From the UHGV virus genome UHGV-0248180: 37,455 nucleotides of DNA. One strand, 5' to 3'. The notes beneath the pieces are model-generated. The model saw only the letters and a list, made by a program, of their open reading frames with translations. It ran no database searches and was not told where the DNA came from. Positions 4,106 to 36,379 of this stretch are shown in pieces. The translations under genes were made by a program, and so were the position numbers. This stretch comes from a virus. Each line of letters begins with the position of its first letter. Position 1 is the first letter of the stretch.

Positions 4106-4135
4106 GTTTACTTTCTCCTAAAACTGTGATAGTAT
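4106..4135 (+). promoter_or_regulatory. T4 early-type promoter (GTTTAC-N18-TGaTAGTAT)
   Basis: -35-like GTTTAC 4106-4111, extended -10 TGn + TAGTAT 4127-4135. Confidence 0.55.
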
Positions 4136-4172
4136 ATTCACAGTTACTAATTAAAATATTTAAAGGAAACAC

Positions 4173-4490
4173 ATGAAAACGTATAAAGAATTTATTGCAG
4201 AATCTGCTGCAGGACAACGTGTAGAAGGCGGTTATATCTGGATTGAACAAGTTGAGCCGCCAAGTCGCACTTCTACAGGTAAATGGAAAATCACTGTTGA
4301 TGGTCCTGGTGGTAAACGTAGGACTCTTAAAGAAATTAACGGGTACTATGAAGAAGCTCTTTCTGACGCGGGTACTTATATGATGCAAATCATGATTAAA
4401 AACCCAGAAAATCGTTTTGCGGCTAGAGTTTTCCGCCGTATTGGAAATAAGCTTTATGATGCATATTCTAAAAACTTCCCTAAAGAATAA
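4173..4490 (+). CDS. Capsid-targeted internal protein (105 aa) with N-terminal CTS MKTYKEFIAE
   Basis: N-terminal capsid targeting sequence typical of T-even internal proteins; located in the ip locus next to e. Confidence 0.75.
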   Translation: MKTYKEFIAESAAGQRVEGGYIWIEQVEPPSRTSTGKWKITVDGPGGKRRTLKEINGYYEEALSDAGTYMMQIMIKNPENRFAARVFRRIGNKLYDAYSKNFPKE

Positions 4491-6837: not shown

Positions 6838-7115
6838 TGGCTCAATTAAGTGCAGGGTTTGGTTATGAGTATTATACTGCACCTCGTCGTGTATCTGCCG
6901 CTCCTAAGAAAATTCAAAGTCTTGATGACTTCCAGGAAGTAGTCCGTAAAGCTTTTCAGGACTATGCACGTTATCTTAAAGAAGATTCACAGGACTGTCT
7001 CGAAGAAGATGAAATTGCTTACTATGAGCAGCGTCTTGAACAGCTTAAAAACTTACATGAGGTTCGTGCAGAAGTTTCAAAGTCTATGAATAAATTGATT
7101 AGATTTAAAGAATAA
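6837..7115 (+). CDS. hypothetical protein (92 aa)
   Basis: ORF, TAATG overlap. Confidence 0.5.
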
Positions 7116-7117
7116 CT

Positions 7118-7147
7118 GTTTACTTTTCCTCTTGACTGTGGTATAAT
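7118..7147 (+). promoter_or_regulatory. T4 early promoter upstream of regB (GTTTAC-N18-TGgTATAAT)
   Basis: GTTTAC 7118-7123; TG 7139-7140; TATAAT 7142-7147. Confidence 0.65.
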
Positions 7148-7174
7148 TTTTCTATCAGTTAAGAGGAGAATAAC

Positions 7175-7636
7175 ATGACTATCAATACAGAAGTTTTTAT
7201 CCGTCGAAATAAGCTTCGTCGTCACTTTGAGTCGGAGTTTCGTCAAATTAACAATGAGATTCGTGAGGCATCAAAAGCAGCAGGAGTCTCATCGTTTCAT
7301 CTAAAATATTCTCAGCATCTTCTTGATCGTGCAATTCAACGGGAGATTGATGAGACATATGTTTTTGAATTATTCCATAAAATAAAAGACCATGTTTTAG
7401 AAGTTAATGAATTCCTGAGTATGCCTCCACGTCCTGACATTGACGAGGATTTTATTGATGGGGTTGAATATCGTCCTGGGCGTTTGGAAATTACAGATGG
7501 AAATCTTTGGCTTGGATTTACGGTTTGTAAACCTAATGAGAAGTTCAAAAACCCGTCACTTCAATGTAGGATGGCAATTATCAACAGTCGTCGTTTACCA
7601 GGAAAGGCTTCTAAAGCAGTAATTAAAACTCAATGA
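7175..7636 (+). CDS. regB: RegB sequence-specific endoribonuclease (153 aa)
   Basis: Translation matches T4 RegB from memory; own Shine-Dalgarno contains the RegB target GGAG (7164-7167). Confidence 0.92.
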   Translation: MTINTEVFIRRNKLRRHFESEFRQINNEIREASKAAGVSSFHLKYSQHLLDRAIQREIDETYVFELFHKIKDHVLEVNEFLSMPPRPDIDEDFIDGVEYRPGRLEITDGNLWLGFTVCKPNEKFKNPSLQCRMAIINSRRLPGKASKAVIKTQ

Positions 7637-11467: not shown

Positions 11468-11490
11468 AGTCTCCTTCGGGAGACTTTTTT
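11468..11490 (+). terminator. Rho-independent terminator (AGTCTCC-TTCG-GGAGACT + T6)
   Basis: 7-bp stem, UUCG loop, T tract. Confidence 0.8.
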
Positions 11491-11500
11491 CATTTTACCG

Positions 11501-11530
11501 GTTTACTTTCCGTCTGAGCCGTGGTACTAT
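11501..11530 (+). promoter_or_regulatory. T4 early promoter (GTTTAC-N18-TGgTACTAT)
   Basis: GTTTAC 11501-11506; TGg TACTAT 11522-11530. Confidence 0.65.
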
Positions 11531-11558
11531 ACAACCATCGGATAAAGAGGAGAACATC

Positions 11559-11747
11559 ATGAAAATTGAAGCACTTAATCAAGAAGGAAATATCTACGTC
11601 ATCATTAATGGTGATTTTTTCGTCGACATGGATGAAGTTACTAGTGAAGAACTTGTAGAATTTCTTAAGAAACGTTATAATATGTGTGATGAAGTTGCAA
11701 CTCACATGGCGTGTGCAATATTCTCTCTTTCATATGTGGTGGAATAA
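11559..11747 (+). CDS. hypothetical protein (62 aa)
   Basis: ORF with GGAG RBS (11548-11551). Confidence 0.5.
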
Positions 11748-12147: not shown

Positions 12148-12310
12148 AAAGCAGATGTTTTTAATGAAGCTAATTGAAGAATATGCTAATGCAGTTTCTG
12201 ACTATGAGTATTCTTCTCGGGAAAGAGGTACAGCTTTCGCAAAGGAAGAAATGAAAATCATGGTTGATGCTCACACAAAGCTTCAAAATTTTATTGAAAA
12301 CAACATTTAA
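12137..12310 (+). CDS. hypothetical small protein (57 aa), paralog family
   Basis: ORF below track cutoff; same GGTGGAATAATGA junction as at 11735. Confidence 0.4.
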   Translation: MKTEKQMFLMKLIEEYANAVSDYEYSSRERGTAFAKEEMKIMVDAHTKLQNFIENNI

Positions 12311-12312
12311 CG

Positions 12313-12342
12313 GTTTACAAGTTGGCAAGGTTATGGTATAGT
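12313..12342 (+). promoter_or_regulatory. T4 early promoter (GTTTAC-N18-TGgTATAGT)
   Basis: GTTTAC 12313-12318; TGg TATAGT 12334-12342. Confidence 0.65.
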
Positions 12343-12370
12343 AATCTTGTCAACTGCCGAGGAGAAGAGA

Positions 12371-12475
12371 ATGAAAGTTTTGCTTGTTGTGTATGTGATG
12401 ATTCAATATAATTACCCAATGTTTACTTATAATTTGGTGAACAACATTATTGATATGGTTCAGAGGAGTATGTAA
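12371..12475 (+). CDS. possible small hydrophobic leader peptide (34 aa)
   Basis: Strong GAGGAG RBS 12361-12366 and ATG 12371 just downstream of promoter; very short. Confidence 0.3.
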   Translation: MKVLLVVYVMIQYNYPMFTYNLVNNIIDMVQRSM

Positions 12476-13020
12476 TGATGGGAGAGGCGAAACGATTAGT
12501 ATTAGAAGTTAGTTCACTTTTTGGTGAATTGGCTATAGAAAAAGTAAATAATATGTATCGTTTGACGCAAGAAGACGATATGCTATATTTTACGCCTAGT
12601 GAAATCATTCATTTAACCCAAATTGAAAATCCTTATACTGATAAAATTGTAAGCATTAATGATGAGCATAAAATTCATTTTTATTCTTCATGCCCAGGAT
12701 TTAATATTGAAAGCGAGTCAATATGCTTATCAGTTATCCATTGGGATAGTTTTATAGATAAGATTAAATATTTTTATTATTCTAATGAAAGAAAACACAG
12801 TTTAAAATGGTTTAAAAATTGCAATGCTATTATTACTAACGCTTGCAATCAGAATGATGAAACTGTTTTAAATGTATCAAAATGTTATGAAGATGGAGAT
12901 GTCTTAACTATTCGTCAAATTGATGATTTTCGATCGCATATTGTCACATTTACCAAAGACGAAGCTATTGCGCTAAAGACTTATCTTGATTCTGTCATTC
13001 CAACTATGATTTCAAAGTGA
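12475..13020 (+). CDS. hypothetical protein (181 aa), paralog of 13027 ORF
   Basis: ORF with GGAG RBS; C-terminal (A/E)AxALKTYLDSVIPTM resembles EAMIKYLTTVTPSM of the next gene. Confidence 0.6.
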   Translation: MMGEAKRLVLEVSSLFGELAIEKVNNMYRLTQEDDMLYFTPSEIIHLTQIENPYTDKIVSINDEHKIHFYSSCPGFNIESESICLSVIHWDSFIDKIKYFYYSNERKHSLKWFKNCNAIITNACNQNDETVLNVSKCYEDGDVLTIRQIDDFRSHIVTFTKDEAIALKTYLDSVIPTMISK

Positions 13021-13026
13021 GGAAAT

Positions 13027-13548
13027 ATGTATATTTCAAGTGAAAGTGGTTTAATTCGTGTTGAATTTAAAAATGATATTTTCCTTATTCAAGGAGATGA
13101 TATTATTAAAATGAGTTATGACGAAATCAAGAAAATTTGTCATACTCTTGAAAGCCGTGGAAACGTAAATGCTGTTATTGATATTGGTGATTTATGGGTA
13201 ACGCTTTATAAAGTATCCGAAGGATTTAACATTGAAGATGAAAATAACATTTTAGCTATTGATAAAAGAACTGATTTGTTTGATGTATTAAAAGCCTATG
13301 AACAGTCAAACGGTGGAAGAAAAGCTGCATTGATTTATCAAAAACCGCATTCATGTGGAACTGCTTCAATCATTTCAAATATTGAAGACGAATCTGATAC
13401 TTATATGTGTGTTTTAAAAGCTGGTGGTGACCGTCATCCGGATTTTATTTCTATTCGTCAAAACAATGGAGAAATTTCATTATCAAAATCAGAAGCTGAA
13501 GCCATGATTAAGTATTTAACAACCGTTACGCCTTCAATGAAAGGATAA
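13027..13548 (+). CDS. hypothetical protein (173 aa), paralog of 12475 ORF
   Basis: ORF; shared C-terminal motif. Confidence 0.6.
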   Translation: MYISSESGLIRVEFKNDIFLIQGDDIIKMSYDEIKKICHTLESRGNVNAVIDIGDLWVTLYKVSEGFNIEDENNILAIDKRTDLFDVLKAYEQSNGGRKAALIYQKPHSCGTASIISNIEDESDTYMCVLKAGGDRHPDFISIRQNNGEISLSKSEAEAMIKYLTTVTPSMKG

Positions 13549-13550
13549 TT

Positions 13551-13997
13551 ATGATTATTAATGAAAACTCTTGGCACGTTCGTATGCATGATTTCTTTTA
13601 CTGGCAGCGTCCGAATTCTTTGTGTAAATATTTCTGGAAAATGGCGTGGACGTTCTTAGTTATCGGTGTTATTTGCATATCGGGGCTATTAGGTAGTTGG
13701 GTGGTAGGACAAGCCATTTTAAGCCAATTTGGCGTTACAGGATTCTGGCTTCTACACGCAGGCGGAACCTTATTTGGTGTACTGATATTTGCTACGATTG
13801 TCATTATTGCAGTAGGTATAGCATATATTATAGCTAAGATTTCAGGTTTATGGGAAGGAGTCAGGTATGATAGAGAGTGGAAGCGTCAACAAGACGAAGA
13901 AAATGGTATTGAACATCCTAAGAGTGTAATCGTTGAATACCTTAAAGCTAGTAAATCTAAAATCTGCCCTATGATAGAATTTAAGGATGTTAAATGA
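13551..13997 (+). CDS. hypothetical integral membrane protein (148 aa)
   Basis: ORF; long hydrophobic segments (WTFLVIGVICISGLLGSWVV... GTLFGVLIFATIVIIAVGIAYII). Confidence 0.6.
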   Translation: MIINENSWHVRMHDFFYWQRPNSLCKYFWKMAWTFLVIGVICISGLLGSWVVGQAILSQFGVTGFWLLHAGGTLFGVLIFATIVIIAVGIAYIIAKISGLWEGVRYDREWKRQQDEENGIEHPKSVIVEYLKASKSKICPMIEFKDVK

Positions 13998-15006: not shown

Positions 15007-15031
15007 GGGAGCCTTCGGGCTCCCTTTTTTT
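15007..15031 (+). terminator. Rho-independent terminator (GGGAGCC-TTCG-GGCTCCC + T7)
   Basis: Perfect 7-bp GC-rich stem, UUCG loop, T tract. Confidence 0.85.
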
Positions 15032-15055
15032 ATTTCAAAAATTTTTCACAAAACT

Positions 15056-15085
15056 GTTTACAAGCATAAAGCTTTATGGTACTAT
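15056..15085 (+). promoter_or_regulatory. T4 early promoter (GTTTAC-N18-TGgTACTAT) with conserved leader ACAACTATCAACT
   Basis: GTTTAC 15056-15061; TGg TACTAT 15077-15085. Confidence 0.65.
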
Positions 15086-15119
15086 ACAACTATCAACTGA
15101 TACGGATTTGGAGAATAAA

Positions 15120-16088
15120 ATGAAAACTGTAACTATTAATAAGGGTATCTATTTCGGTAAAGAAATCTCTGGAACTTTTGAGCTCTTAGGCGAATGGTTC
15201 CCAGATAATGCTCCGGTAGATGCACAAGGAGATGGTAAAGTTTTTGTTGAAATTGACGGTAAACGTCGCGGTGTTTGGGTTTACAAATCCGATATTTCAT
15301 ATGATGGTGTAAAAGTTGAAGAAGTTAAAGAATCATATGAAGATATGAAAACCCGCATTAATAAAAGATTTAATGTTATGGGAATGATGACGAATGGTAT
15401 TATTAACGGAAACATTCGTTCATTAATTATCTCTGGTGCGGCAGGTATTGGTAAAACGTATTCTTTAGATAAAGCTTTAAATAAAGCAAATGATGTTGGA
15501 TACATTGAGTATAAAAGCATTAATGGTAAAATCTCTGGTATCGGTCTTTATGAGCAGCTCTGGAATAATCGTGAAGAGAATTCTGTCCTTTTGATTGATG
15601 ATGTGGATGTTTTCTCTGATATGGACATTCTTAATCTTCTAAAAGCTGCTCTGGACACTGGAGAGACCCGTAAAGTCTGCTGGAGCACTGCATCTTCTTA
15701 CTTAGAAGAAAAAGGCATTGACCGTGAGTTTGAATTTAAAGGAACGATTGTTTTTATCACAAACGTTGACATTGACCGCGAATTAGATCGCGGAACTAAA
15801 CTTGCTCCACACCTACAAGCATTAGTGTCCCGCTCAGTTTATTTAGATTTAGGTGTTCACACTAATGAAGAAATTATGGTCAGGGTTGAAGATGTTATTC
15901 TTTCAACTGACATGATGCAAAAGCGTGGTCTTTCTGATGAAGAAACTTATAAAGCATTATCATGGATGAAAGTTAATGTTAATCGTTTACGCAATGTTTC
16001 ACTGCGTACTGCTCTTTATCTTGCTGACTTTATTATGACCGACAAAAACGGTTGGGAAGAAATCGCTGAGGTTACTCTTCTGAAATAA
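15120..16088 (+). CDS. Predicted AAA+-type P-loop ATPase (322 aa)
   Basis: Walker A GAAGIGKT, Walker B VLLIDDVD, sensor-like FITN; GGAG RBS; track start 14952 reads through the promoter. Confidence 0.7.
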   Translation: MKTVTINKGIYFGKEISGTFELLGEWFPDNAPVDAQGDGKVFVEIDGKRRGVWVYKSDISYDGVKVEEVKESYEDMKTRINKRFNVMGMMTNGIINGNIRSLIISGAAGIGKTYSLDKALNKANDVGYIEYKSINGKISGIGLYEQLWNNREENSVLLIDDVDVFSDMDILNLLKAALDTGETRKVCWSTASSYLEEKGIDREFEFKGTIVFITNVDIDRELDRGTKLAPHLQALVSRSVYLDLGVHTNEEIMVRVEDVILSTDMMQKRGLSDEETYKALSWMKVNVNRLRNVSLRTALYLADFIMTDKNGWEEIAEVTLLK

Positions 16089-16177: not shown

Positions 16178-16492
16178 ATGGAGGTAATGATGTTATACTC
16201 AAAGGCTCGTGAAATTTACGAAACTAAAATTAAAGAAGCAGTATTCCAGTTCGCAACGACAATGCGATGGACAAATGATTGGGAGTATTCAAAAAATCAT
16301 AAGAAGCCCATGGTGACAAGAAAGGCTCATATGTTAGTGTTAATAGACCGTGAGCAGATTAAAGCCCGAGAAGCCCTCCAGAATCATAAAAAGGCTGCCT
16401 TTGAATGGTTTATGGATAACACTGCTCCTGAGACTAAGAAAGCAGTGAGCGCTTGGTTCAGTGGAAAAAATTGTGAAAGAAGTTTCTTTTAG
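16178..16492 (+). CDS. hypothetical protein (~100 aa; start ambiguous among ATG 16178/16187/16190)
   Basis: ORF with GGAGG RBS. Confidence 0.5.
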   Translation: MEVMMLYSKAREIYETKIKEAVFQFATTMRWTNDWEYSKNHKKPMVTRKAHMLVLIDREQIKAREALQNHKKAAFEWFMDNTAPETKKAVSAWFSGKNCERSFF

Positions 16493-16494
16493 TT

Positions 16495-16524
16495 GTTTAC
16501 AAGACTGTTCCTCTGTGGTACTAT
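16495..16524 (+). promoter_or_regulatory. T4 early promoter (GTTTAC-N18-TGgTACTAT) with conserved leader ACAACTATCAACT
   Basis: GTTTAC 16495-16500; TGg TACTAT 16516-16524. Confidence 0.65.
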
Positions 16525-16552
16525 ACAACTATCAACTACGGAGGAACAGAAA

Positions 16553-17080
16553 ATGAATGCTAAAGATATTTTCAACCTGGTAAATTACAACGATGGTAAA
16601 TTTAAATCAGAAGCACAAAGCAAGTTCTTTAATGACATCTCAATCGGAGGTGAAATCACGGTTGATGGAGGACAGATTTACAAATCCCGTTGGAATTGGA
16701 TCGTTATTATTGATGAGATTGGTATTGTAGAAATTTACAAAAATACGAATAAAAATCGTACATTGCACTGGTCTCGTGATACTAACGAACAGTACAAAAA
16801 GGATAAAGCATCTAAATTATCTCGTGTAACTCAAGAAGATATTGAGTTTATCAAGAAAGATATTTTAATGTATGATAACTTAATTGCTGAAGAGCAAGCT
16901 GTTATTGATAAATTTGACGAGATTAAAGCTTCTCGTGAAATTCCTGATTTTATGAAAGAATCAGTAAATGAACGATACACTCTCATTTCAGAGCGTATTG
17001 AAACTTACAAAAAGCAAAGAGCTGAACGCCAAAATACTCTTCGGAAGTTTGAAGAACGGTTAAAGACGGTACTCGCATAA
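16553..17080 (+). CDS. hypothetical protein (175 aa) with C-terminal coiled-coil-like region
   Basis: ORF with GGAGGA RBS; track start 16493 reads through promoter. Confidence 0.6.
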   Translation: MNAKDIFNLVNYNDGKFKSEAQSKFFNDISIGGEITVDGGQIYKSRWNWIVIIDEIGIVEIYKNTNKNRTLHWSRDTNEQYKKDKASKLSRVTQEDIEFIKKDILMYDNLIAEEQAVIDKFDEIKASREIPDFMKESVNERYTLISERIETYKKQRAERQNTLRKFEERLKTVLA

Positions 17081-18449: not shown

Positions 18450-19469
18450 ATGAAAACTCGTTCTCAAATTGAAGATATGGTTCGTAATGCCAGCTATACT
18501 CGTGATGTTATGACATTTTTGTGCCAAAATAATTTAGACCCTGATAAAGTTAATCGTGATATTCACTTTAAATATATGAATAGCAGTGAATGGTTACGTC
18601 ATTTTAGTAAAGCGGGGTATATTACACAAATGACGGCTCGTGAGCAGCTCACCGATTTCTGTAAAACTATTGATTATAAAAATCCTCTATTTGTTCAAGG
18701 CGTTGGTCAGAGTAAGGTTGATTTATCATCTGGATTTTTTAATCCAAATCATTATCGTATTGAGTGGAGATTTATTGCTCTATTCCGTAAACAATTAAAG
18801 CAAATTTTGTCGACGGCTAGTCGATTAAAAGGTTCTGATATTAACTTAAAGAATCTGAAATTTGATGGTTATACTCTTCAGATGGAAGTAAGACCATTAA
18901 AAGAAAATAACAGAACTGCACGAATTAGCTTTAAACCTAATACAAAAAATTCTCTTTCAATTTGTGAATGCCTTAAATCACAGTTGACAGAAGCATTTAA
19001 GTATATGGATGTAGTTGCCGCGGTTCAGTCTAAGATTTTACCTCATTTTGAGCGAAATTGGGAACATACAGCAACGTATGAACTTGATATGATCGTTTCA
19101 TTTAAATACGATTTTTTGAGAAAGGACGAAGTCCCGCAAGAGAAAAAGCAGGAAGTGCAAGATATCTTAAATTTATCCAATTACTCATCAAACGATCCTA
19201 AATTTTGGATGTATAGTTCAGGTAATAAAGATACATGGAAATTCAATAAAGTGAATTTTCTTCCTGTTGAAAATCCGAGTCTTAAACCTGTTGAAAAATG
19301 GCACGCGGATGCGATTGAGAAGTCTATCAAGGCAGTAGATGATGAACTCGTTAAAGCAACTAATGAAGTGTTAGAAGCTGAAAAGATGCTAGAAAAAGCT
19401 CAAGAAAAAGTCAAAAATCTTACGAAGCAACGTTCTAAACTGAACAACGCACTAAATGCACTAAACTAG
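18450..19469 (+). CDS. hypothetical protein (339 aa), paralog array member 2
   Basis: ORF with AGGA RBS; central motif WRFIALFRKQLKQILSTASRL; coiled-coil tail. Confidence 0.6.
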   Translation: MKTRSQIEDMVRNASYTRDVMTFLCQNNLDPDKVNRDIHFKYMNSSEWLRHFSKAGYITQMTAREQLTDFCKTIDYKNPLFVQGVGQSKVDLSSGFFNPNHYRIEWRFIALFRKQLKQILSTASRLKGSDINLKNLKFDGYTLQMEVRPLKENNRTARISFKPNTKNSLSICECLKSQLTEAFKYMDVVAAVQSKILPHFERNWEHTATYELDMIVSFKYDFLRKDEVPQEKKQEVQDILNLSNYSSNDPKFWMYSSGNKDTWKFNKVNFLPVENPSLKPVEKWHADAIEKSIKAVDDELVKATNEVLEAEKMLEKAQEKVKNLTKQRSKLNNALNALN

Positions 19470-19498
19470 TTTACTTTGCCACAAGGATGTGGTATAAT
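19469..19498 (+). promoter_or_regulatory. T4 early promoter (GTTTAC-N18-TGgTATAAT)
   Basis: GTTTAC 19469-19474; TGg TATAAT 19490-19498. Confidence 0.65.
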
Positions 19499-19526
19499 GT
19501 TCTTACTTTCTACTGAGGAGATTAAT

Positions 19527-20528
19527 ATGACTCGTAACGAATATATCAAATCATTCAATAGCGTTATTGATGATAAAGTTAAACCTGTGTTTAGTCAGAA
19601 TAGTGTTATTTCCATTATCAATCAATGGCTCAATAATATTGATGCAAGTATTGTTTCTTCAAGCAAATTTATTCATGAAGTTCATAAAATTTCTAGTCGC
19701 GAATATAAAGATGATATTAAGGAAACTTTTAAAGGTTCTCGTCTTCTTTCATATTTAGTTAATCAAGATATTCTTGGTAAATTTGGGAAAGAAATTAAAC
19801 GAACTAAAGATGTAGTAGGATACAGTTGGTTCGGTGATGTTAATTCTTATCATCTTAATAATAAAGAAGACCCTGAGAATATTTTTACTCGTCGTTGGAT
19901 TAGTAATTTTAGACTTTTCAAGAAGCAAATTCTAAAATCAGCTTCTAAATTATGCTATGGTGATTATCGTCAAATCCATCCTTGGGCTTCTGATATGATT
20001 ATCATAAAAGAATATGAGCTTGATAAAAATAAAGCAGCTATTTTTGTGAATTATGAATTTTTTACACCAGAAGCTAATCAAAAGAACATTAATAAATTTT
20101 TCTCAATTGCTAGCGATATAACTCGTCAGTTAGAGACCGCATTACTTTGTATGGAAACAGTAGAAAATATTTATACTTATCCTTTTAAGAATATATGCGG
20201 TTGGGAAGGATATAAAATTGTAGTTAGTCTCCGTGAAGTAAAGTGTGCGTACTCACCGACTGATAAAGAAATTTACCAACAAAAATGTGATGAAATTGTG
20301 AATACTCCTAAAGAAGAAACTACCCTTGAGGAACTAATGGAATGTCTTGACGATTCGCCTGAACCAGTAGAAATTCGTCCAGAAGTTATTGCACTAGAAA
20401 AAGCTTATAAAGAAGTTCTAGAAATTTCTAATAAAGCGCAGAAAGAATATGAGCAGGCTAAAAGGATTTGGGAAGAATCTGTTAATCGCCTGGATCGTCT
20501 TGAACAAGCTTTACAGTTAATTAAGTAA
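19527..20528 (+). CDS. hypothetical protein (333 aa), paralog array member 3
   Basis: ORF with GAGGAG RBS; central motif RRWISNFRLFKKQILKSASKL; coiled-coil tail. Confidence 0.6.
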   Translation: MTRNEYIKSFNSVIDDKVKPVFSQNSVISIINQWLNNIDASIVSSSKFIHEVHKISSREYKDDIKETFKGSRLLSYLVNQDILGKFGKEIKRTKDVVGYSWFGDVNSYHLNNKEDPENIFTRRWISNFRLFKKQILKSASKLCYGDYRQIHPWASDMIIIKEYELDKNKAAIFVNYEFFTPEANQKNINKFFSIASDITRQLETALLCMETVENIYTYPFKNICGWEGYKIVVSLREVKCAYSPTDKEIYQQKCDEIVNTPKEETTLEELMECLDDSPEPVEIRPEVIALEKAYKEVLEISNKAQKEYEQAKRIWEESVNRLDRLEQALQLIK

Positions 20529-22142: not shown

Positions 22143-22406
22143 ATGTTTAAAGTATATGGTTATGATAGCAACATTCATAAATGCGTGTATTGCGATAATG
22201 CAAAACGTCTTTTGACTGTGAAGAAACAGCCGTTTGAATTTATCAACATTATGCCGGAAAAAGGTGTTTTTGATGATGAGAAAATCGCTGAGCTTCTGAC
22301 TAAACTAGGTCGTGATACTCAAATCGGCTTGACAATGCCTCAGGTATTTGCTCCTGATGGAAGTCATATTGGTGGATTTGACCAACTGCGAGAATATTTT
22401 AAATGA
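22143..22406 (+). CDS. nrdC: Glutaredoxin/thioredoxin NrdC (87 aa)
   Basis: CVYC active site; matches T4 NrdC from memory. Confidence 0.92.
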   Translation: MFKVYGYDSNIHKCVYCDNAKRLLTVKKQPFEFINIMPEKGVFDDEKIAELLTKLGRDTQIGLTMPQVFAPDGSHIGGFDQLREYFK

Positions 22407-22618
22407 TGCTCGAAGGAACTGACTATATTCATGATTACCGCAGAAGCGCGGTATATGTAGGTGATGAAGTTGCAGTTTATTATGGGTATGGAACTTTGAT
22501 GACAGCAAAGGTTATTCAAATTAAAAATAATCGTGCTAAACTTGAAGTTTATTATTCTAACGGTGAAAAGTCTATTTCTAAATGGAAATATGGTGATTGT
22601 ATGGTCAAACTGGGGTAA
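22403..22618 (+). CDS. hypothetical protein (71 aa)
   Basis: ORF, ATGA overlap. Confidence 0.5.
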   Translation: MMLEGTDYIHDYRRSAVYVGDEVAVYYGYGTLMTAKVIQIKNNRAKLEVYYSNGEKSISKWKYGDCMVKLG

Positions 22619-22620
22619 AT

Positions 22621-22791
22621 ATGATTTACGATATTAGCGTATCAAGAACTCCGTCAATGGTTACTATTCCTGCTGAAGAACTAAATCGTCTTCAGAAAAT
22701 TGAAGAGCTTCTTTGGGAAATTGAATCTGATTTGCCATCAGGACTAGAATCCTGGATTGATTATGAAGAACTTAATAAGCTTCGGGGTTAA
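22621..22791 (+). CDS. hypothetical protein (56 aa)
   Basis: ORF; track start 22597 is TTG, first ATG is 22621. Confidence 0.45.
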   Translation: MIYDISVSRTPSMVTIPAEELNRLQKIEELLWEIESDLPSGLESWIDYEELNKLRG

Positions 22792-22843
22792 ACCCTGGTG
22801 GGCGGCTAGATGGGAAACTGTAGAGCCAGAGCCGGAAGAACCG

Positions 22844-22873
22844 GTTTACACTGATGAAGAAACAGTATATAAT
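22844..22873 (+). promoter_or_regulatory. T4 early-type promoter upstream of pin (GTTTAC-N18-TATAAT)
   Basis: GTTTAC 22844-22849; TATAAT 22868-22873. Confidence 0.5.
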
Positions 22874-22913
22874 GAACCAACGATAAATGACTTAATTGAT
22901 ATGGAGATGGGAC

Positions 22914-23399
22914 ATGATTACAGTAGATAAGTGGTTTAGAATTAATCGTGTTGATACAGGGCTATGTAATTACTGGCCGGAACTTAGTGCAGGTACTGTC
23001 TTTAAAGTTCGTGAACTTACAAAAGAATGTGAAGATGATATAGAGCCTGATACTGGAATTATTGAAATTGAACTTTCCGACGGAAAGATTATTAACATCT
23101 ATGATAAGCCAATTACGTATTGGTGCTTGTGGAATGCTGAATCCGTTGAAAATGGCGAAATTGAAGAAGTTGTAGAGAGAACTAGCCAAGATGTTCAGAA
23201 GCCTAAAGCCGCTTTTCAAGGTGAACGTATTTCATATGCATTAGCTAAAGTGGCATTGAAAAAAGATATTGATGATTATGAAGGTAACCTGATGCAAGCT
23301 GCGGCAGAATATATTGAATGGCTTGAAACACAAAATTCTTTTTCTGACCAAATGATTCGGCAATATAAGCGATTGCATCAAATGTTTTATAATACTTGA
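22914..23399 (+). CDS. pin: Pin, inhibitor of host Lon protease (161 aa)
   Basis: Synteny nrdC-pin-49 and 161-aa size as in T4; GGAG RBS before ATG 22914 (track start 22896 is TTG). Confidence 0.8.
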   Translation: MITVDKWFRINRVDTGLCNYWPELSAGTVFKVRELTKECEDDIEPDTGIIEIELSDGKIINIYDKPITYWCLWNAESVENGEIEEVVERTSQDVQKPKAAFQGERISYALAKVALKKDIDDYEGNLMQAAAEYIEWLETQNSFSDQMIRQYKRLHQMFYNT

Positions 23400-23654: not shown

Positions 23655-24128
23655 ATGTTATTGACTGGCAAATTATATAAAGAAGAAAAACAGAAATTTT
23701 ATGATGCACAAAACGGTAAATGTTTAATTTGCCAACGAGAACTAAATCCTGATGTTCAAGCTAATCATCTTGATCATGACCATGAATTAAATGGACCAAA
23801 AGCAGGAAAGGTACGTGGATTGCTTTGTAATCTCTGCAATGCCGCAGAAGGTCAAATGAAGCATAAATTTAATCGTTCTGGATTAAAGGGACAAGGTGTT
23901 GATTATCTTGAATGGTTAGAAAATTTACTTACTTATTTAAAATCCGATTACACCCAAAATAATATTCACCCTAACTTTGTTGGAGATAAATCAAAGGAAT
24001 TTTCTCGTTTAGGAAAAGAGGAAATGATGGCCGAGATGCTTCAAAGAGGATTTGAATATAATGAATCTGACACCAAAACACAGTTAATAGCTTCATTTAA
24101 GAAGCAGCTTAGAAAGAGTTTAAAATGA
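23655..24128 (+). CDS. 49: Endonuclease VII, Holliday junction resolvase (157 aa)
   Basis: Translation matches T4 gp49 from memory; zinc motif CLICQ..CNLC. Confidence 0.95.
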   Translation: MLLTGKLYKEEKQKFYDAQNGKCLICQRELNPDVQANHLDHDHELNGPKAGKVRGLLCNLCNAAEGQMKHKFNRSGLKGQGVDYLEWLENLLTYLKSDYTQNNIHPNFVGDKSKEFSRLGKEEMMAEMLQRGFEYNESDTKTQLIASFKKQLRKSLK

Positions 24129-25942
24129 CAATTGAAAAAGAAATTGAAGGATTGATTCATAAAACTAATAAAGACCTTTTAAACGAGAATGCTAATAAAG
24201 ATTCTCGTGTTTTTCCAACTCAACGGGACCTTATGGCTGGTATTGTGTCTAAACACATTGCCAAAAATATGGTCCCGTCTTTTATTATGAAAGCGCATGA
24301 AAGCGGAATTATTCATTTCCATGATATTGATTATTCCCCTGCTCTTCCATTTACTAATTGTTGTTTAGTAGATTTAAAAGGAATGCTTGAAAACGGATTT
24401 AAGCTTGGTAATGCACAGATTGAAACTCCTAAATCAATTGGCGTTGCTACTGCAATTATGGCGCAAATTACTGCGCAAGTTGCTTCCCATCAATACGGCG
24501 GAACGACTTTTGCGAATGTAGATAAAGTACTTTCTCCTTATGTTAAACGCACCTATGCAAAACATATTGAGGATGCAGAAAAATGGCAAATCGCTGATGC
24601 GTTGAATTATGCTCAATCTAAAACAGAAAAAGACGTATACGATGCATTTCAAGCTTATGAATATGAAGTAAACACTCTCTTTAGTTCAAACGGACAAACG
24701 CCTTTTGTAACAATTACATTTGGTACGGGAACTGACTGGACTGAACGAATGATTCAGAAAGCAATTCTGAAAAATCGTATTAAAGGTCTTGGTCGTGATG
24801 GGATAACTCCTATTTTCCCTAAGCTTGTTATGTTCGTTGAAGAAGGCGTTAATCTTTATAAAGACGATCCGAATTACGACATTAAGCAACTTGCTCTAGA
24901 GTGTGCAAGCAAAAGGATGTATCCTGATATTATTTCAGCTAAGAACAATAAAGCTATCACTGGTTCATCTGTTCCTGTTTCTCCAATGGGTTGCCGTAGT
25001 TTCTTGAGCGTATGGAAAGATTCGACTGGTAATGAAATTCTTGATGGACGTAATAATCTTGGTGTTGTAACACTGAATCTTCCTCGCATCGCGTTAGATT
25101 CTTATATTGGAACACAGTTCAATGAACAGAAATTTGCTGAATTATTCAATGAACGAATGGATTTATGTTTTGAAGCTTTGATGTGTAGAATTAGTTCCTT
25201 AAAAGGAGTTAAAGCTACTGTTGCTCCTATTCTTTACCAAGAAGGTGCATTCGGGGTTCGTCTTAAACCTGATGACGACATAATTGAGTTATTTAAAAAC
25301 GGTAGAAGTTCAGTGTCTTTAGGATACATTGGTATTCACGAATTGAATATTCTTGTCGGTCGTGATATTGGACGAGAAATTTTAACTAAAATGAATGCTC
25401 ATCTTAAACAGTGGACTGAAAGAACTGGATTTGCTTTTAGCTTGTATTCTACTCCCGCTGAAAACCTTTGTTATCGCTTCTGTAAACTTGATACTGAAAA
25501 ATATGGAAGTGTAAAAGATGTTACTGATAAAGGCTGGTACACTAATAGTTTCCATGTTTCAGTAGAAGAAAATATTACTCCGTTTGAAAAGATTTCTCGC
25601 GAAGCCCCATATCATTTCATTGCGACAGGTGGTCACATTTCTTATGTTGAACTTCCTGATATGAAAAATAACTTAAAAGGTCTTGAGGCCGTGTGGGATT
25701 ATGCTGCACAGCATTTAGATTATTTTGGTGTTAATATGCCAGTAGATAAGTGTTTTACATGCGGAAGTACCCATGAAATGACTCCTACTGAAAACGGATT
25801 TGTTTGTTCTATTTGTGGAGAAACTGATCCTAAAAAGATGAACACAATAAGAAGAACATGTGGTTATTTGGGAAATCCGAACGAGCGCGGATTTAATCTT
25901 GGCAAAAATAAAGAAATCATGCATAGGGTTAAACACCAATGA
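24125..25942 (+). CDS. nrdD: Anaerobic ribonucleoside-triphosphate reductase NrdD (class III), 605 aa, uninterrupted
   Basis: C-terminal glycyl-radical motif RRTCGYLG and zinc ribbon CFTCGS..CSICG. Confidence 0.95.
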   Translation: MTIEKEIEGLIHKTNKDLLNENANKDSRVFPTQRDLMAGIVSKHIAKNMVPSFIMKAHESGIIHFHDIDYSPALPFTNCCLVDLKGMLENGFKLGNAQIETPKSIGVATAIMAQITAQVASHQYGGTTFANVDKVLSPYVKRTYAKHIEDAEKWQIADALNYAQSKTEKDVYDAFQAYEYEVNTLFSSNGQTPFVTITFGTGTDWTERMIQKAILKNRIKGLGRDGITPIFPKLVMFVEEGVNLYKDDPNYDIKQLALECASKRMYPDIISAKNNKAITGSSVPVSPMGCRSFLSVWKDSTGNEILDGRNNLGVVTLNLPRIALDSYIGTQFNEQKFAELFNERMDLCFEALMCRISSLKGVKATVAPILYQEGAFGVRLKPDDDIIELFKNGRSSVSLGYIGIHELNILVGRDIGREILTKMNAHLKQWTERTGFAFSLYSTPAENLCYRFCKLDTEKYGSVKDVTDKGWYTNSFHVSVEENITPFEKISREAPYHFIATGGHISYVELPDMKNNLKGLEAVWDYAAQHLDYFGVNMPVDKCFTCGSTHEMTPTENGFVCSICGETDPKKMNTIRRTCGYLGNPNERGFNLGKNKEIMHRVKHQ

Positions 25943-28015: not shown

Positions 28016-28017
28016 GG

Positions 28018-28037
28018 GCTTCGGCCCTTTTTGGATA
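28018..28037 (+). terminator. Rho-independent terminator (AAGGGC-TTCG-GCCCTT + T tract)
   Basis: UUCG hairpin and T5. Confidence 0.7.
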
Positions 28038-28067
28038 ATAAAATTTTAACGTAATTGAGGATAATGT

Positions 28068-30210: not shown

Positions 30211-30384
30211 ATGAACGCCCAGACTTGTGAAATAGATTATAATAAAATTCGTTCCTCTAAAGTAGAAATGATGAGACGCTTTAAAGAATCTCATGATAAA
30301 GCTAAAGCAGAAGGAACTATAACATATAAGCGTATTAAATTTAGAAGCTCTAATGAGCCTCTGTATGGTGTATTATGCGGATAG
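30211..30384 (+). CDS. hypothetical small protein (57 aa)
   Basis: ORF below track cutoff; weak RBS. Confidence 0.3.
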   Translation: MNAQTCEIDYNKIRSSKVEMMRRFKESHDKAKAEGTITYKRIKFRSSNEPLYGVLCG

Positions 30385-30399
30385 GAGCTTCGGCTCCTA
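30382..30399 (+). terminator. UUCG-tetraloop hairpin (TAGGAGC-TTCG-GCTCCTA), weak T tract
   Basis: Stem-loop read from sequence. Confidence 0.45.
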
Positions 30400-31653: not shown

Positions 31654-31669
31654 AGGGCTTCGGCCCTTT
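31652..31669 (+). terminator. UUCG-tetraloop hairpin (AAAGGGC-TTCG-GCCCTTT)
   Basis: Same 18-mer recurs at 36362-36379. Confidence 0.5.
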
Positions 31670-31692
31670 AGCTTTATACGGAGTTTGATATA

Positions 31693-31833
31693 ATGATATT
31701 TCTTGGATATGTGATACTTTTTCTTGCATTTTATCTATTCACTAGAGCATGTTGGATTGGGTTCTTTATCACTCCAGATGGATTTATTTCATTAATTTTA
31801 TTTTGCATTTCAATGACGGTTCTTGATATATGA
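31693..31833 (+). CDS. hypothetical small membrane protein (46 aa)
   Basis: ORF below track cutoff; hydrophobic; ATGA overlap with gene 47 start. Confidence 0.4.
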   Translation: MIFLGYVILFLAFYLFTRACWIGFFITPDGFISLILFCISMTVLDI

Positions 31834-34975: not shown

Positions 34976-34989
34976 TTTATAAGAGATTA

Positions 34990-35013
34990 TGCTTTAATTT
35001 ATTAGAGTATAAT
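34990..35013 (+). promoter_or_regulatory. Candidate MotA-dependent middle promoter (TGCTTTA, 11 nt, TATAAT)
   Basis: TGCTTTA 34990-34996; TATAAT 35008-35013. Confidence 0.55.
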
Positions 35014-35030
35014 CTCTATGGAGGAAAAAC

Positions 35031-36361: not shown

Positions 36362-36379
36362 AAAGGGCTTCGGCCCTTT
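36362..36379 (+). terminator. UUCG-tetraloop hairpin (AAAGGGC-TTCG-GCCCTTT), weak T tract; possibly an mRNA stability element
   Basis: Identical to hairpin at 31652-31669. Confidence 0.45.

Follow-up and report, generated by a model that had tools for sequence, protein, structure and literature searches.

A probable RegB target in the regB Shine-Dalgarno sequence and a predicted, consensus-defined subset of further early targets in a T4-like phage

The gene regB starts behind a Shine-Dalgarno (SD) sequence that contains GGAG, the tetranucleotide at which RegB cuts early mRNAs, and GGAG recurs in front of many other genes in the 37,455-nt stretch of viral DNA analysed here (UHGV virus genome UHGV-0248180; the window). 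Two questions follow: does RegB act on its own message, and does GGAG in an SD mark the transcripts that are shut off early? A sequence-only reading of the locus had answered yes to both. The part concerning regB autocontrol is supported; the equation of a GGAG-containing SD with shut-off is too broad.

Three pieces of the window, compared by BLAST with phage genomes, matched hundreds of Tequatrovirus records at 95–99% identity, RB14, Shigella phage JK38 and slur07 among them; identity to the best matches was 96–99%. By these sequence matches the window is the early region of a Tequatrovirus (T4/T2/RB14-like). Mapping of RB14 proteins and comparison with T4 gave 82 genes, all on the + strand, as are the promoters and target sites placed below. 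Their order runs from e.8 to e, then Ip4, vs.8–vs.3, regB, vs.1, vs, tk, rI, mobD.x and nrdC.x, followed by pin, 49, nrdD/G, 55.x, 55, a-gt, 47, 46 and 45 through to 44; together they make up the prereplicative arm, with its early and middle genes, in the classical form of a T-even genome. Several local features were also observed. Departures from the T4 gene set were noted in 24125–25942, 12475–13997 and 22403–22930: nrdD (605 aa) is uninterrupted and lacks the I-TevII intron, the homing-endonuclease genes mobB, mobC and mobD are missing, and RB32ORF082c/081c-like ORFs occupy the place of 49.2 and 49.3. The segment 13551–13997 shares only 32% identity with its RB14 counterpart. An extra ORF of 105 aa (4173–4490) lies between e and Ip4, with its own early-type promoter (GTTTAC-N18-TGaTAGTAT, 4106–4135) and AAGGA, not GGAG, as its SD; its N-terminus, MKTYKEFIAE, is reminiscent of the capsid-targeting sequence in internal proteins of T-even phages. 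The corresponding T4 locus (4106–4490 here) holds ipIII, ipII and denV, the last of which is absent from the window.

The regB coding sequence (7175–7636, + strand) specifies a sequence-specific endoribonuclease of 153 aa. It matched Pfam PF10715 (REGB_T4) over profile positions 1–148 of 148 (E = 5.9e-69; 231 bits against a cut-off of 27) and the NMR structure of T4 RegB H48A (PDB 2HX6) with 151 of 153 residues identical (99%; E = 8.8e-100), one of the two mismatches being the engineered H48A of that entry. H48, R52 and H68 are all present. The R52L mutant of RegB is inactive. In an alignment of 28 RegB homologues H48 is invariant, and so are R56, D51 and the C-terminal CRMA motif. H68 (codon 7376–7378), which has been named with one other histidine as possibly catalytic in T4 RegB, occurs in only 10 of the 28, with K, N, R, S, E, G or V in the rest. 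Given its 99% identity to the characterised T4 enzyme, we infer that RegB of the window carries out S1-stimulated cleavage at GG^AG.

Upstream of the gene, a consensus scan, with which a custom scan agreed, identified a sigma-70 early promoter of the T4 PE type, GTTTAC-N18-TGgTATAAT (7118–7147), which matches 10 of 12 consensus positions and has an extended −10 element (TG before the −10). Transcription is predicted to start at ~7154, giving a leader of ~21 nt. Behind this promoter, in the 59-nt gap between vs.3 and regB, GGAG occupies 7165–7168, 6 nt before the ATG (7175). It had been placed at 7164–7167, where the sequence is AGGA; the motif is present in regB's own SD, one nucleotide further downstream. 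Sequence, consensus scoring and identity to T4 define the complete target as GG^AGAAUAACA (7165–7175), with the cut expected between G7166 and A7167. The site agrees with 10 of the 11 positions of GGAGRAYARAA, the RegB/S1 consensus; its tail, AATAACA, scores 6/7 against RAYARAA. The key positions 6, 8 and 11 are all A, and the sole C is at position 10. The predicted fold leaves GGAG largely accessible in the transcript from the regB promoter (0.89 unpaired) and almost wholly paired when ±40 nt of flanking sequence is included, as in read-through from upstream promoters (0.02 unpaired), so the efficiency of cutting may differ from one transcript to another.

The case for autoregulation rests on identity to T4. 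The regB initiation region is identical from −25 to +12; early promoter, SD, spacer and start are the same, and so are the neighbours vs.3 and vs.1. In T4, cleavage by RegB is efficient at the SD of its own message and weaker at three places inside the coding sequence (PMC3014915). Three GGAGs inside regB of the window, at 7234–7237 (offset 60), 7283–7286 (offset 109) and 7342–7345 (offset 168), each share the T4 offset and a 20-nt context with T4. The proposal that regB is autoregulated is therefore supported, as a rediscovery of established biology, since the sites are those of T4 and the SD cut is documented there (PMC3014915).

On this basis a scheme can be proposed that extends what is directly observed, namely the identity to T4, the identity of the enzyme, the promoter/SD architecture and the conservation of GGAG, to cleavage in the window phage itself. 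In the first minutes of infection regB would be transcribed from its own early promoter into a short-leader mRNA. With the host's ribosomal protein S1 on the A-rich tail as its activator, RegB would then cut GG^AG in its own SD, destroying the ribosome-binding site, leaving a 5′-OH mRNA and so limiting RegB synthesis. The weaker internal cuts (7234, 7283 and 7342) would aid decay of the message, the body of which would be degraded by host RNase G/E after phosphorylation by T4 PNK (PMC3014915). Among the other early cistrons only a subset would be affected, those in which GGAG, or rarely GGAU, is single-stranded and followed by an A-rich, C-poor tail of the RAYARAA type, and inactivation of this promoter-proximal early subset would help the switch from early to middle expression.

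Conservation of the regB SD was examined in 46 IMG/VR loci encoding RegB homologues (36–100% protein identity), which fall into 18 distinct SD contexts. GGAG is found in sixteen of them; the other two are GGAT, in the Serratia phage CHI14 group, and GGAA, in the Klebsiella phage Marfa group, while the nucleotides around the SD diverge freely. Of 188 genes neighbouring regB in these loci, 17 (~9%) have a GGAG-type SD, as judged with a crude start-caller; the nominal binomial p of ~1e-15 is overstated because lineages are not independent, and the contrast is still large. The review by Uzan and Miller likewise gives GGAG as the regB SD in 35 T4-related phages, with GGAU in RB49, and reports cleavage in every case tested (PMC3014915). 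About 10 nt upstream of regB, the CHI14 group (L020) reads GGATTAAATAA and the Marfa group (L039–L041) reads GAGAGGAAATTAAA, with GGAA, a tetranucleotide that T4 RegB reportedly cuts very poorly; RegB autocontrol may have been weakened or lost in Marfa-like phages.

Across the window, regB included, GGAG stands 4–12 nt upstream of the start in 16 of the 82 genes (17 if e.5 starts at the ATG at 1325). The scan against shuffled controls that the sequence-only reading had proposed thus finds the expected enrichment: 500 dinucleotide-preserving shuffles gave 1.67±1.27 such genes (maximum 6), and 0.6 would be expected from the 977 non-start ATGs. The enrichment is purely positional, since the two strands together hold 118 GGAGs, in line with chance (123.6±10). 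Nor can such a scan tell a RegB target from an ordinary SD, since GGAG belongs to the anti-SD complement and is outnumbered at these positions by both AGGA (37 genes) and GAGG (26 genes). The eleven sites listed in that reading in addition to regB were all recovered within ±2 nt, at 127, 460, 1312, 11549, 12361, 12465, 15110, 16180, 16540, 19517 and 22903; ten of them lie 6–9 nt upstream of a homology-supported start, and 1312 is an SD solely if e.5 starts at ATG 1325 (T4 annotation), not 1331 (RB14). SD-positioned GGAGs that it had missed precede e (3598), rI (10777), rI.-1 (11068), 47.1 (31680) and 45.2 (35020).

Within the coding sequences of the window GGAG is depleted (39 against 74.6 expected from synonymous-codon shuffling, z = −5.7). 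RegB-driven avoidance was considered as the cause and rejected, since GAGG (z = −4.3) and GAGA (z = −4.5) show depletion as well and the late structural genes of RB14 (L001:1–9188) have the same GGAG ratio, 0.55; the depletion is general and specific neither to RegB nor to early genes. In the window's early-region genes and in those late RB14 genes alike, all three tetranucleotides occur at about 0.5–0.6 of the synonymous expectation, and AGGA, GGAA and CTCC are not depleted.

Genes within 80 nt of a GTTTAC-N18-TGnTAnnAT element, taken here as early-promoter-proximal, have a GGAG SD in seven of nine cases, against nine of the 73 others (Fisher p = 8.7e-5). The seven are ORF134, regB, mobD.5, mobD.2, nrdC.10, nrdC.8 and nrdC.4. 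When aligned they share a cassette in which the promoter is followed by a short leader of the AUCAAC type, then by GAGGAG, an A-rich spacer and the ATG; it recurs on the + strand at 395–472, 7110–7177, 11493–11561, 12305–12373, 15048–15122, 16487–16555 and 19461–19529. The likeness (GTTTAC-N18-TGgTAyTAT, ACAAC-TATCAAC, GAGGAG) reaches past the promoter hexamers into the transcribed leader, and the regB promoter region aligns with eight other early promoter-leader cassettes of the window. The leader tatcaactacaGGAG also precedes denV in T4 and regB in some distant phages (L026–L033).

Matches to RAYARAA averaged 4.4 of 7 positions after SD-positioned GGAG, against 2.7 after coding GGAG (p = 1e-4) and 3.2 after GGA[ACT] SDs (p = 0.009). 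Searches without regard to SD position gave no enrichment: the 11-mer with one mismatch anywhere occurs 17 times in the whole window against 16.2 expected, and sites on the + strand with GGA[GT] intact and at most one tail mismatch number 7 against 5.7±2.5. Five of these seven near-consensus + strand sites lie in leaders or initiation regions.

How such sites behave has been studied in T4. Durand et al. (2006; PMC1702504) tested 68 intergenic GGAGs: 24 were cut efficiently, those of nrdC.8 and 47.1 moderately, and the remaining 42 showed poor cleavage or none; 16 of the 42 resistant GGAGs lie in stable structures, often UUCG-tetraloop hairpins. The efficient sites described there are single-stranded over 11 nt and follow GGAGRAYARAA, with A at positions 6, 8 and 11 most conserved, G at position 5 favourable, and C absent from positions 7 and 9. 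None of the cleaved T4 RNAs has C at position 7, and a denV-type tail, with C at both 7 and 9, resists cleavage. RegB also cuts GGAU at two places, one in orf 55.2 and one in motB.2. The mobD.5 transcript serves as a negative control and is called 'not sensitive to RegB' in the legend of Figure 5 (PMC1702504).

Measured against these rules, GGAG in an SD is too broad a predictor of early shut-off. That all 16–17 genes with a GGAG SD in the window are switched off early by RegB is extremely unlikely, even though every site has GGAG at canonical SD spacing, most sites lie in prereplicative transcription units and seven directly follow early promoters. T4 itself cuts only 26 of the 68 sites tested, and a denV-type tail (C at 7 and 9) is resistant (PMC1702504). 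The mobD.5 initiation region is identical to that of the RegB-insensitive T4 transcript, which makes mobD.5 a documented non-target. In the window, pin, rI, rI.-1 and nrdC.9 have tails of at most 4/7, and the SD of e is wholly paired in the predicted fold (0.00 unpaired).

The opposite extreme would make GGAG a strong SD core and nothing more, selected for translation of promoter-proximal early cistrons with very short leaders and free of any RegB constraint. The abundance of AGGA and GAGG at SD positions, the membership of GGAG in the anti-SD complement, its overall count at chance and the 42 of 68 uncut T4 GGAGs (PMC1702504) all agree with such a view. It accounts poorly, however, for the retention at regB of exactly GGAG, rather than GAGG or AGGA, in 16 of 18 diverged contexts when neighbouring genes have it at ~9%, for tails that come nearer to the RegB/S1 consensus behind GGAG than behind GGAA or GGAT SDs, and for the cut shown experimentally at the identical regB site of T4. 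We regard it as quite improbable, though somewhat less so than the shut-off of every GGAG-SD gene. What the evidence favours, with high confidence, is that the regB translation initiation region works as in T4 and that, beyond regB, a consensus-defined subset of early cistrons would be inactivated.

Candidate members of this subset were ranked by tail score against RAYARAA, and the ranking is a projection from the published consensus; for most T4-identical sites the class is accordingly a consensus-based prediction, not a published experimental class. The strongest predicted target is the SD of nrdC.10, GGAGAATAAAA (15110–15120), with a 7/7 tail and an 11/11 site in a region identical to T4, behind an early promoter at 15056–15085. 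The SD of mobD.2, GGAGAAGAGAA (12361–12371; early promoter 12313–12342), scores 6/7 with A at positions 6, 8 and 11 and is a probable target. So is that of e.8, GGAGAATGAAA (127–137), also 6/7; the site has G at position 8 where T4 has the perfect GGAGAATAAAA, and may be weakened for this reason. Against the 11-nt site of Durand et al. (PMC1702504), mobD.2 and e.8 both match at 10 of 11 positions. In the overall ranking nrdC.10 and mobD.2 stand with regB and a GGAU at 28033 in a strong tier, and e.8 stands with ORF134, nrdC.4 and 45.2 in a second tier of probable targets.

ORF134 (470–646) is RB14ncORF134c-like and has no T4 orthologue, and its site, GGAGAAATAAA (460–470), was for that reason never tested in T4. 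Its 5/7 tail contains six A but lacks C, and an early-type promoter precedes it at 403–432; the same 11-mer, GGAGAAATAAA, serves as the regB SD in loci L009–L013. We consider it a probable target. The SD of nrdC.4, GGAGATTAATA (19517–19527; early promoter 19469–19498), identical to T4 and 5/7, is a possible one. That of nrdC.8, GGAGGAACAGA (16540–16550; early promoter 16495–16524), scores 4/7 with G at position 5; the T4 counterpart, GGAGGAACACA, is listed as 'moderately cleaved' (PMC1702504).

Two candidates were absent from the earlier list of GGAGs and lie in the distal part of the window. The SD of 47.1, GGAGTTTGATA (31680–31690), scores only 3/7, yet its region is identical to that of T4, where the site is likewise 'moderately cleaved' (PMC1702504); the rule used to define the target subset is therefore imperfect. 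The SD of 45.2, GGAGGAAAAAC (35020–35030), is a possible target, with a 5/7 tail, G at position 5 and 0.79 unpaired. Both sit in or beside middle-promoter-like elements. The 47.1 GGAG falls between the MotA box and the −10 of one (31668–31694), from which middle transcripts would start downstream, and the 45.2 GGAG falls at about the predicted +1 of another that contains a MotA box (34988–35023). Given this placement, the two GGAGs would be intact on read-through early transcripts only.

A search for GGAG alone passes over the GGAU in the 55.2 leader, GGATAATAAAA (28033–28043), which was absent from the earlier list too. Lying just after a terminator hairpin, it has a 7/7 tail and matches all 11 positions if U is allowed at position 4. 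We tentatively assign the GGAU cut of T4 orf 55.2 to 28033, with the SD GGAT at 28059 as the alternative.

The remaining sites are expected to be largely resistant. The SD of mobD.5, GGAGAACATCA (11549–11559), lies behind an early promoter in a T4-identical region and has C at positions 7 and 10; by analogy with T4 it is probably a non-target. Tails are poor at pin (3/7), nrdC.9 (3/7), e.5 (3/7) and mobD.1 (4/7), and these genes, together with mobD.5, rI, rI.-1 and e, make up the sites for which little or no cutting is predicted. In the predicted fold the e SD is completely paired, and on early T4 transcripts it is sequestered in a hairpin. Judged by the published consensus (PMC1702504), about half of the SD GGAGs of the window have tails of 4/7 or less, or C at excluded positions, and should not be classed as efficient sites.

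Outside SDs, a GGAG at 11479–11482 lies in the stem of a UUCG-tetraloop terminator hairpin (unpaired probability 0.00), and the GGAGs at 15008 and 30384 lie in UUCG-hairpin stems likewise. By analogy with the structured class of resistant T4 sites (PMC1702504), all three would be expected to resist cleavage. The intergenic terminator hairpins concerned span 11471–11486, 15008–15023 and 30384–30397, each with a stem GGAG, and similar hairpins were seen near 1290–1306, 28016–28027 and 36365–36378.

The system as a whole is close to RegB and its autogenous control in T4 (Uzan, Sanson, Durand and co-workers; reviewed in PMC3014915), and with T4 the window shares the initiation regions of nearly all its other GGAG-SD genes in addition to that of regB. 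It differs in that the window phage is a T2/RB14-type Tequatrovirus, with G at position 8 of the e.8 site, G in place of the T4 C at nrdC.8, an ORF134, and neither denV nor its resistant GGAG. RegA of T4, the gene for which lies just outside the window, downstream of genes 44 and 62, also represses early and middle mRNAs, including its own, at translation initiation regions; unlike RegB it binds RNA and competes with ribosomes without cleavage, and it recognises other, AU-rich sequences around the AUG. The RelE/YoeB mRNA interferases resemble RegB in fold and in cutting between nucleotides 2 and 3 of a triplet with help from the translation machinery (PMC3014915). RegB has no sequence homology to them and no antitoxin; it is phage-encoded and S1-dependent, and acts at initiation regions instead of A-site codons.

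Self-cleavage of regB and an early-gene RegB regulon are already known T4 biology. Experiments on T4 from 1988 to 2010 established the mechanism. The present analysis has little import beyond annotation, its practical gain being a corrected target list for the window phage. For target prediction, the full 11-nt RegB/S1 site should be used together with accessibility; a search for GGAG by itself would wrongly include documented non-targets, mobD.5 among them, and would overlook the GGAU at 28033. A broader reading, which we hold only tentatively and think rather less than even, is that the RegB regulon is retuned between lineages instead of being fixed, with ORF134 as a new member, e.8 as a variant and a GGAA SD in Marfa-like phages. 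The early promoter and RegB/S1-like region of ORF134 suggest that newly acquired accessory genes come under RegB control by way of a promoter-leader-SD cassette, and the change of A to G at the key position 8 of e.8 may weaken control. If such retuning proves true, it would be of modest interest.
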